Origin: Candidatus Omnitrophota bacterium
GTDB taxonomy: Bacteria > Omnitrophota > Gorgyraeia > Zapsychrales > Fredricksoniimonadaceae
Direction of reading: 5' to 3'
Assembly (NCBI GenBank): GCA_030650275.1
Contig: JAUSEK010000023.1
Coordinates: 199,729 to 263,728 of the forward strand
DNA: 64,000 nt
This document shows positions 20,658-23,600 of the stretch, one piece after another. The notes under the pieces are model-generated. The model was not told where the DNA came from. It made no database searches and was given only the letters and a program-made list of their open reading frames with translations. The position numbers and the translations under genes were made by a program. Each line of letters starts with the position of its first letter. Position 1 is the first letter of the stretch.

Positions 20658-23600
20658 ATGTTTAAAAAATTCCTAAACCTTGTCCTGATTCTTACCTTTG
20701 TGGCCTCTTCGTTGGCGCCTGCCCGTTCTTATGCCGCACCCCTATCTTTACCTGAGCCGGGAACAATGGTCAATCTAAGCCCTGCCTTTGAGTCGGTCTT
20801 GATCAAAGGCCTTAAAGTCCATCCCGAGAATCCTTTTGCCTTTGATTTCATTGTAGATACCGGCCACACGGGATTGTCCGTAGAGACGAGGCATGCCTCG
20901 TCTCTACACAACGAATCCATGAAATTGATCAAATATTTCCTTACTGCCTTAACCATCCCCGAAAAAGACCTCTGGGTCAACCTGTCTCCCTATGAGAAGG
21001 ACAGGATGATCGCAGAGAACTTAGGCAAAACCCAAATGGGCCAGGACATGCTGGCCCAGGACTATATCCTCAAACAACTGACCGCATCTCTGATCTATCC
21101 TGAACGTGACTTAGGCAAGGCCTTCTGGGACAAGGTCTACCAAAAAGCCCAACAACTCTACGGCACTACTGAAATACCCGTCAACACCTTTAACAAGGTC
21201 TGGATCGTTGCAGACAAGGCCGATATCTTTGAACGCGGCAATGTGGCCTACATTGTAGGAGCACATCTTAAGGTGATGCTGGAGGAGGACTACACGGCTT
21301 TAAACAAGAACCAACAGGGATTGTCACCCCCGAAATCTTCTATCGGGGGTCCAGAGCATGGGACATCTTCTGGATTCCCGACAAAAACATTCGGGAATGA
21401 CAGCCATGCGATGGCCTCCCAGATCGTCCGTGAGGTCATCCTTCCCTCCATCGAACAAGAAGTCAACCAGGGCAAGAACTTTGCCCCTCTTCGCCAGATG
21501 TTCTACTCCATGATCCTGGCTTCCTGGTACAAGATGGCCCTTAAAGACACCATCCTAACCCAACTCTACGGTAACCAATCAAAGACCAAGGTCGGCATCA
21601 ACGCCAACAACCCCAATGACAAGGACAAGATTTTCGAACAATACCTGAAGGCCTACAAGAAGGGTGTGTTCAACTATATTAAGGAAGATGCTTCGGCTGC
21701 GCTCAGCACAGGTGCTTCGACTCCATCGTCCCGACAATCGTCGGGACTCGGTCGCTCAGCACAGGTGCCCAGGAAGTATTTTTCGGGGGGGCTGCAGATG
21801 GGCGTTGACCAAGCCATGCGGGTCGTGCACGACCTGCCTTTGGGGACATCATTACGTACAGGAAACACCTTTGATGTCGCGATCTTGGCCAATACTAAAT
21901 TGGCTGGTTCCGACGGGGCGATGGTGGCCAGGATACCAGTTAATTATACTAATACAAGAACACGTCAAGCAGTAGCTGGTTTGAAACTAACAGAGCTGGG
22001 CGTTGGCTATACACGTTTATCCAACGGAAATCCGACACCAGAGATGATTTTTACCGTGACCACTCCAAGCGGTCGAACAATTGAATTAACCGGAGCATCA
22101 CCGGCAGGAGAGTCTGAAGGAGTAAGAGCAGCCCTCTTTATGCTAGATGGGTCAGCAGCTGAAGACCTTACACTTATCAGAGATGGAGTTCTCAAAGCCG
22201 TTTACGGGGATATCTCTAGAGAAGATGCGGAAAATAGGATGCTAAAAGACATTTTTGGATTAGACAGGCAGCAAGCCCTTGTCCAGATGAAGGCTGACTT
22301 AAAAGGAAAAAATATTAAAGTCGCCCTTTGGATCGCTGAAAAAGTAATCCTTCCAAAGCTTAAAGACGCCATTGAATCAGGGAGGGTTGATCCAGCCATA
22401 AGATATCGCATGGATGACACTCAAAACAAAAGTATTGATGACTTTCTTATTAATCTCGACATTGAACTTTTTGGTCGTGAAGGATACAAGGGGGATCAAT
22501 TTTTAGCCCTTAGTGGAGGCAATGTAACTGCTTTGAGTAGGGTTGGGTACAGATTAGTAGCTACTTTAAACGGTGTTTCCAATGAAGAAGTTTTATCTCA
22601 TGGTTATAACCCAGATACAGGAGAAGTTGATCCTCATCAGGAGTTTGGCATCGTTCATCCCATGCCTGTTTTAATCGAAGGCGCCGCTCATGGAGGCTGG
22701 CTAACTGATTTTCAAGAGTTTATGTATTTAATGATGCTTAATGAACGAGAGAGAGCAATGAAAGGATTAGCTCCGAAGTTTGAAAGTCTTCTTAACAAAA
22801 TACAAGCAGTGACAGTGGCACTAACCGATATATTGAAGAAACAGGGAGAGTCCGTCGGTGTGGGTAGCGAAGCGGCCTTTATGTTAAGAAACGCAAATAG
22901 CAATTTAGATCCGATTCAATATCTTTTAGATGCGGCTCGAAAGAGTGGATTAGTAGTAGGAGAAGATTATGGTTTAAGCTTTGATTGGGCCACCAGTGAA
23001 ATTTATCACACCACTGCAGATGGATGGCCTGTGACCGGGTATTATCTATCACTTGAAGGCCGATTAGGAAAACTGCCTGAGATTATTATTCCTGGAGGAA
23101 CTGCGGAAGGTCAAGTGCGAACTCTGGGCCAATTGATAACAGTTCAGGGTAAAAAATATGCTGTATTATCGACGATAAATATGTTTGATTGGATTAAATA
23201 TTTAATTACAAGAACAAACAACCCTCTTCCCTTGGCTACACTGGAAGATATATTTGCTCAGTTTGATATCCAAGGAACCAGAATGTTGACAGGACTTTTA
23301 TATGAACTGAAAAGAACATCCGGATTTCCGTTTAGTTTTCAAAATAGTAATGGTGTAACGCAGGTCATGGATGACATGTGGACAACCCGTCGAGATATCA
23401 TGAGAGCTGCGATCAAGGGGACCCCTCTAGGAGAACCGTTAGTTATTGGAGAGGGGAGAGATCAAGAAGTATTAAATTTTCCTCAGGATACGTTCGACGG
23501 GGGGTTGGTAAAGCTCAATCAGGTTGGGCCGATAAAGTGGTTTATGCAAGCGGCCGCAGAGTTACGGGCACGAGGCCGTGATGTTGTTGATTCTCATAGG

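Follow-up and report, generated by a model that had tools for sequence, protein, structure and literature searches.

A short palindromic element made of two hairpins recurs in a 64,000-nt stretch of a Candidatus Omnitrophota metagenome-assembled genome (MAG; NCBI GenBank assembly GCA_030650275.1, contig JAUSEK010000023.1, positions 199,729 to 263,728 of the forward strand; this whole stretch is called the window below), where it lies in frame within protein-coding genes as well as between genes. We asked what this element, here called the doublet, is and to which known system it belongs. The results of our analysis make it likely that its hairpins are members of the family of the Neisseria Transformation Sequence (NTS) and the Ssn-related motif (SRM), and that the doublet is an Ssn-linked miniature of the NTS-ssn-NTS unit from which the ssn gene is missing. 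The doublets show the topology of the hairpin pairs that bracket ssn genes elsewhere, and for this reason we read them as ssn-less mini-elements. The original prediction, made from the sequence alone, had described a dispersed family of two-hairpin palindromic repeats and had likened it to MITEs (miniature inverted-repeat transposable elements) and to Rickettsia palindromic elements; the closest known system, the NTS/SRM hairpins of the Ssn nucleases, was not named in it.

Copies of the element in the window

All of the copies described in the original prediction were present, and the family was recovered by a repeat search of the window, which contains three full two-hairpin elements of 66 to 82 bp, together with a solo hairpin and a fragment:

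5596-5661 (+): doublet copy 1, a 66-bp two-hairpin element in frame inside the E2/aceF gene
5597-5629: hairpin A of copy 1, of the long-loop type; a 6-nt spacer follows
5635-5661: hairpin B of copy 1, with a short loop, GCTTTCGC; the NTS reads forward on the minus strand
21321-21402 (+): doublet copy 2, the copy flagged in the original prediction, in frame in paralog 1; hairpin A at 21322-21354, an 18-nt spacer, hairpin B at 21370-21402
26302-26312 (+): half-site fragment CGGGAATGACA (11 nt), intergenic, made of the 3' arm and head of hairpin B; probably a remnant
31765-31793 (+): solo NTS hairpin CTGTCATTCCCGCGAAGGCGGGAATCCAG, in frame in paralog 2
33892-33972 (+): doublet copy 3, intergenic; hairpin A at 33893-33925, hairpin B at 33940-33972

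These positions confirmed the in-frame copies in aceF/E2 and in paralog 1 and the intergenic copy. The predicted coordinates of copy 1 (5595-5660) and of a terminal fragment (about 26288) had to be corrected to those given above, while both features themselves stood. The inverted half-copy that had been noted in paralog 2 is the solo hairpin, which is 96% complementary to hairpin B of copy 1 according to the repeat search.

Every hairpin showed a common anatomy, in which a GC-rich stem enclosing a loop is preceded by GTCA and followed by TCCAG. Hairpin A (TGTCACCCCCGA, a loop of N4-14 and TCGGGGGTCCA) was found three times in the window and hairpin B (GGATTCCCG, a loop of N3-14 and CGGGAATGACA) four times, as against none of either in 100 dinucleotide-preserving shuffles, and an exact 11-mer such as CGGGAATGACA is expected about 0.03 times per 64 kb. 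None of the window copies, nor the solo hairpin, nor the fragment is expected by chance, and the chance similarity that the original prediction had considered as an objection does not account for them. In inverted orientation, hairpin B matches hairpin A at 84-85%; the element therefore ends in 33-nt inverted repeats, each of which is itself a hairpin. The heads (GTCA) of the doublet point outward, the forward reading being on the plus strand for hairpin A and on the minus strand for hairpin B.

A Logan short-read contig (L121, from SRR13727527) was identical to positions 1-5622 of the window and stopped inside hairpin A of copy 1, which is consistent with the assembly break expected at a multi-copy repeat. 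A further candidate hairpin at 30044-30074, inside the PEPCK gene, was rejected: PEPCK aligned to its Pfam model without an insertion, and the single stem mismatch of the candidate placed it at the background level of the relaxed criterion (11 observed versus 4.8 expected).

Relation to NTS/SRM hairpins and to ssn genes

The NTS was defined by Chenal et al. (2025, Nat Commun; PMC11893778) as CGTCATTCCCGCGMAVGCGGGAATCYRG, a superset of dRS3, and the SRM as the degenerate motif HGTCWYN(0-2)YYVSBRHN(0-5)WNVSBRGN(0-2)RNCYNB, a search motif built by hand from 29 genomes. In the same study the GIY-YIG protein SsnA bound the NTS hairpin and cut upstream of it, in both cases only when the DNA was single-stranded, and the gene architecture NTS-ssnA-NTS was noted. 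Comparison of the window hairpins with the NTS consensus showed one mismatch, at the first base, in the solo hairpin, which also passes the SRM search motif, and two, at the first and last bases, in hairpin B of copy 1. The five long-loop hairpins do not match the NTS consensus as a whole; they share its head, stem and tail. All seven window hairpins are flanked by GTC on the 5' side of the stem and by C on the 3' side.

For a survey of ssn genes, Ssn homologues were collected and 80 metagenome loci encoding Ssn were taken. A forward hairpin was located at most 120 nt upstream of ssn at 49 of 74 loci and a reverse hairpin at most 120 nt downstream at 56 of 74, and hairpins were present on both sides at 39 of 68 loci, with the heads outward and in the same orientation as hairpins A and B of the window. 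The unit at locus L181 is composed of CTGTCATGCCCGAATGCTTTTATCGGGCATCCAG (A-like), a 96-aa GIY-YIG gene and TGGATTCCCGCTAAAAACACGCGGGAATGACAG (B-like). Its A-like hairpin has the same GAATG.TTTTATC loop, and the four differences in the stem of this hairpin form two compensatory pairs; the two ends are 84% and 93% identical to consensus A and consensus B, respectively. Near relatives of the L181 GIY-YIG protein are annotated in Omnitrophota MAGs. L181, which carries hairpins of the long-loop type, is a full-length counterpart of the doublet. All six Ssn loci labelled Omnitrophota at NCBI (L204-L209) were bracketed by NTS hairpins, and GTCATTCCCGCGAAAGCGGGAATCCA, which is identical to hairpin B of copy 1, was located near ssn in five of the six. 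Long-loop hairpins accompany the L181-type Ssn clade at locus L210.

More complex arrangements were also observed around ssn. Identical 94-aa ssn genes occurred every ~1.6 kb at L210 (1-3285; also at L211-L213), with toxin-antitoxin cassettes (ParE, HicA and YafQ) and long-loop NTS hairpins between them, an arrangement that resembles a cassette array. At L188 (1200-3310), a tandem array with a period of about 81-83 nt extended on both sides of ssn, with alternating forward and reverse hairpins that have two different stems. Tandem half-site fragments (GCGGGAATGACA and GGGGATGACA), which resemble the window fragment at 26302-26312, adjoined complete hairpins near ssn at L204 (10340-10410) and L209 (1-140). 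Homologues of ssn were also present on 52 predicted viral contigs of IMG/VR (L220-L271), with hairpins on both sides in 18 of 47, and such viral NTS-ssn-NTS units are a possible vehicle for spread across phyla.

The doublet itself is not restricted to the window, a restriction that would have counted against the original prediction: the 20-nt pattern of the A/B junction was found at at least 120 loci of GTDB species representatives. By record titles, and among the matches listed, these loci span at least ten phylum- or class-level lineages, with Binatia, Deltaproteobacteria and Thermodesulfobacteriota, Omnitrophota, Planctomycetales, Verrucomicrobiia, Bacteroidota, Elusimicrobia, Acidobacteriota, Sphingomonadales, Iodobacter and Janthinobacterium, and Synechococcus represented. 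The 126 junction matches listed (123 at loci and 3 in the window) contained 97 full doublets of 63-87 nt, and the parts of the doublet outside the search pattern, loops included, were 80-100% conserved among these matches; L022, L072, L078 and L103 were chance or partial junction matches. Long stop-free stretches contained only 9 of the 97 doublets, whereas 55% of random segments drawn from these loci fell in such stretches. Most members of the family therefore lie between genes, and a window with three genic insertions is unusual. No doublet was matched by blastn in the plasmid collection, and no doublet junction was matched in a scan of viral contigs.

Two variants were apparent among these loci. 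In eight copies from Binatia and Deltaproteobacteria (L003, L005, L007, L014, L016, L095, L102 and L116), CTCACCACGACCCTGAGCCACGTCGAATGGG stood in place of the 5' half of hairpin A, and these copies appear from their sequence to be chimeras with another repeat family. At Binatia-type loci (e.g. L015, L042, L066 and L097), the flanks beyond the hairpins were conserved as well (ATTTATCCCAAAGGC on the left and GGACTCTAAGAGGT on the right), which indicates that the element is longer there than in the window.

The hairpins proposed in the original prediction were supported by folding. As single-stranded DNA, the window copies gave z-scores of -4.8 to -6.4, with two hairpins closed by TGTCA/TGACA and TCCAG/CTGGA stems, copy 3 folding as one long hairpin. 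When 47 distinct doublets were fitted to the two-hairpin model, 99.6% of the stem cells were paired and one stem pair covaried (A-U in 24, C-G in 23). The stems of hairpins A and B (ACCCCC/GGGGGT versus ATTCCC/GGGAAT) differ in a compensatory manner (CC/GG versus TT/AA), and each hairpin thus folds on its own. One long hairpin, of the kind formed by paired repetitive extragenic palindromes (REPs), was considered as the constrained structure and rejected: loop-loop pairing reached 82.3% of cells versus 82.4% after shuffling, without covariation, and the loops were complementary only at the level of the consensus. At the loci selected for ssn, 10 of 12 tail-to-tail doublets carried two different stems, which suggests, on small numbers, that heterotypic pairs are the rule; the avoidance of a long perfect palindrome is a possible reason.

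If the doublet is mobilised by Ssn, as we infer, an Ssn encoded elsewhere in the genome would nick the DNA, in single-stranded form, a few nucleotides to the 5' side of each head. With the heads outward, the cleavage sites would lie on the two strands and would bracket the doublet at both of its outer borders. Ssn supplied in trans would then drive copying or insertion of the doublet without target-site duplication, and genic copies would persist only where the frame is open and where about 22-27 extra residues are tolerated, such as in the flexible linker of E2 and in two variable loops of a family of secreted proteins. Of the 97 copies, a single one showed a target-site duplication at k=2, where chance alone would give about 6, and none did at k>=3; this test at the hairpin borders is strict for Omnitrophota-type copies only, because the Binatia element is longer. 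No duplication was seen at the three window copies. The absence of a gene, the topology of an ssn pair and the lack of target-site duplication are what one would expect if a mobile NTS-ssn-NTS unit had given rise to a non-autonomous derivative.

Several results weigh against assigning the element to the NTS/SRM family and to Ssn. Only one of the seven window hairpins, the solo hairpin, passes the published SRM search motif; of the six that fail, five do so by their 9-nt loops alone and one (hairpin B of copy 1) at its last base only. Motif and phmmer searches, with queries validated as GIY-YIG by Pfam (the associated class is of the cd10448 type), found no GIY-YIG gene in the 64-kb window and none within ~4 kb of 120 doublet loci, so the link to Ssn in the window genome is indirect. 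Part of the stem conservation in the alignment across genomes is due to the pattern with which the aligned sequences were found. In the published work Ssn modulates transformation; the moving of DNA was not demonstrated there, and mobility was raised only as a hypothesis (PMC11893778).

The Ssn nucleases and the NTS/SRM hairpins were described only in 2025 (PMC11893778), and since the doublet looks like a non-autonomous derivative, the mobility hypothesis becomes directly testable. The long-loop variants escape the published SRM motif, and current counts of these repeats are therefore probably underestimates. We would go further only tentatively: it is conceivable, although we think it rather less likely than not to hold in full, that NTS-ssn-NTS units are a true class of mobile elements driven by a GIY-YIG single-strand DNA nuclease, and that doublets are their non-autonomous, MITE-like derivatives, spread over at least ten bacterial lineages, possibly by phages, and remodelling proteins by in-frame insertion.

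The best-placed alternative, which we nevertheless regard as unlikely, is that the element is a REP doublet (REPIN or BIME) kept by a RAYT, that is, a Y1 transposase of the IS200/IS605 type, and is unrelated to Ssn. An inverted doublet of short palindromes that is mostly intergenic and leaves no target-site duplication is what such an origin would give. The head of the element is GTCA, however, and not the GTAG typical of REPs, its sequence fits the NTS consensus, and the gene seen between such hairpins encodes a GIY-YIG nuclease.

Genic copies and their host proteins

Three genes of the window carry hairpins within their reading frames:

4650-5915 (-): host gene 1, 2-oxo acid dehydrogenase E2 subunit (aceF-like), 421 aa
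20658-25322 (+): host gene 2, paralog 1, 1554 aa, from a family of large Omnitrophota proteins predicted to be secreted
30840-33440 (+): host gene 3, paralog 2, 866 aa

The E2 protein of the window is 100% identical to MDO8675828.1 of NCBI, from a Candidatus Omnitrophota MAG. Copy 1 is located between its lipoyl domain (aa 6-76) and its E3-binding domain (aa 135-170), i.e. in the interdomain linker, and its minus-strand reading is SPVIPAKAGIQKDGPPIKTFGGDK. Copy 2 is read as LSPPKSSIGGPEHGTSSGFPTKTFGNDS in paralog 1, and the solo hairpin as VIPAKAGIQ in paralog 2. The inserts add about 22-27 residues to the predicted host proteins, a range that corrects the approximately 25 aa previously estimated for each genic copy. 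The claim that the element keeps the reading frame open in either orientation did not survive, only two or three of the six frames of each doublet being stop-free; survival in frame is thus a matter of selection or survivorship and not a built-in property of the element.

Relatives without the insert exist for both doublet-bearing genes (L076 for paralog 1, and E2 proteins with an Ala/Pro linker), as a comparison of orthologues, suggested by the original prediction, showed. An E2 orthologue that is 90% identical (P0122/L202) has retained the insert in frame, another (P0125/L203) has only CTGTCATTCCC left, followed by a deletion, and in orthologues further removed the insert site is occupied by an ordinary Ala/Pro linker. 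The family of paralogs 1 and 2 was affected at two sites. At site 1, paralog 1 has the doublet, L031 a degenerate solo NTS and paralog 2 an unrelated palindrome with a GTAG head; the site is empty in L076. Site 2 contains the solo NTS in paralog 2 and a full doublet variant, with stems ATGCCC/GTTCCC, in the L012 homologue, and is empty in the remaining homologues. The two loops were hit repeatedly, with independent doublet, solo and empty states, and the genic copies are most simply viewed as tolerated passengers in flexible regions of proteins.

The GTAG-headed palindrome (31490-31550; TGTAGGGGCGA...TCGCCC...GGGCGA...TCGCCCCTACA) is in frame in paralog 2 and has a single copy in the window. 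In paralog 1 the N-terminal region of the family is combined with a stretch that weakly resembles enolase C and with a histidine phosphatase domain; paralog 2 carries a receiver domain instead.

It could be argued that the genic copies are selected protein modules with a peptide function of their own rather than tolerated DNA parasites, since the insert is kept in frame in the 90%-identical E2 orthologue and insertions recur in two particular loops of the paralog family. We give this explanation little credence: the same DNA is read in varied frames and orientations and yields unrelated peptides, conservation sits at the level of the DNA hairpin, most copies across genomes are intergenic, and an unrelated palindrome replaces the doublet at the same protein site in paralog 2.

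As tolerated DNA, the hairpins persist in frame in E2, which is an essential enzyme, and more than once in particular loops of a protein family. They probably explain the recurrent peptides of the 'VIPAKAGIQ' and 'FGND' types in MAG proteomes, and they add noise to annotation and make protein lengths vary.

Remaining alternatives and comparison with known systems

A role as a structured RNA, for example in stabilising mRNA, in attenuation or as a small RNA, would agree with the strong predicted folds and with the position of copy 3, 30 nt upstream of the start (34002) of a CusB/HlyD-like gene. It is just as improbable as the protein-module explanation. A scan of the window returned no Rfam family for the element, the only hits being a tmRNA (10301-10708, minus strand) and two tRNAs (8623-8704, minus strand; 50394-50464, plus strand); copies lie in both orientations relative to transcription and also inside coding sequences; no T run follows the hairpins; and SsnA showed no RNA binding (PMC11893778).

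A classical MITE derived from an insertion sequence with a DDE transposase, the strict form of the MITE likeness drawn in the original prediction, would account for the small size, the many copies and the 33-nt terminal inverted repeats (84-85% complementary), but it is the least probable explanation of all, given the lack of target-site duplications, of any transposase found with these ends and of plasmid matches, the solo hairpins that exist and insert alone, and the GIY-YIG nuclease, not a DDE transposase, encoded by the related full-length unit L181.

The second likeness drawn in the original prediction, that to Rickettsia palindromic elements, held at the functional level. These elements, described in Rickettsia, are palindromic as well; they persist within protein-coding genes without breaking the frame, and the proteins gain a few tens of residues. 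They measure 100-150 bp, as against 66-82 bp here, and are compared with the doublet by their in-frame behaviour. Rickettsia is among the genomes with more than 300 SRM elements (PMC11893778), and a link between the two kinds of repeats is possible, though unproven.

Like the REP, BIME and REPIN systems, the NTS hairpins form inverted doublets without target-site duplication and flank a small single-copy gene of the nuclease type. The nuclease is of the GIY-YIG rather than the HUH/Y1 type here, the head is GTCA in place of GTAG, and the sequence is conserved across phyla instead of being specific to a species.

A further likeness is that to the dRS3 repeat of Neisseria (ATTCCC-N8-GGGAAT), since hairpin B and the solo copy contain an exact core of the dRS3 type, ATTCCCGCGAAGGCGGGAAT. 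The dRS3 is a repeat of Neisseria and a target of phage integration there, whereas the present element is located in an Omnitrophota MAG and forms a doublet with a second type of stem.

The likeness to the NTS/SRM hairpins is the closest. Both have the head, stem and tail GTCATTCCCG...CGGGAATCCAG, both form hairpins in multiple copies across phyla, and an inverted pair of NTS hairpins brackets ssn genes, as the loci surveyed here also showed. The window hairpins differ in that they form gene-less, heads-outward doublets with two stems (ACCCCC and ATTCCC), in that most of them have 9-nt loops, which are outside the published SRM search motif, and in that the window is without an ssn gene. Copies also lie in frame inside genes of the window, and genic copies are, by a word search of its text, not described in PMC11893778. 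What is new relative to the known NTS/SRM elements is the gene-less heterotypic doublet, the long loops and some of the insertions within genes.

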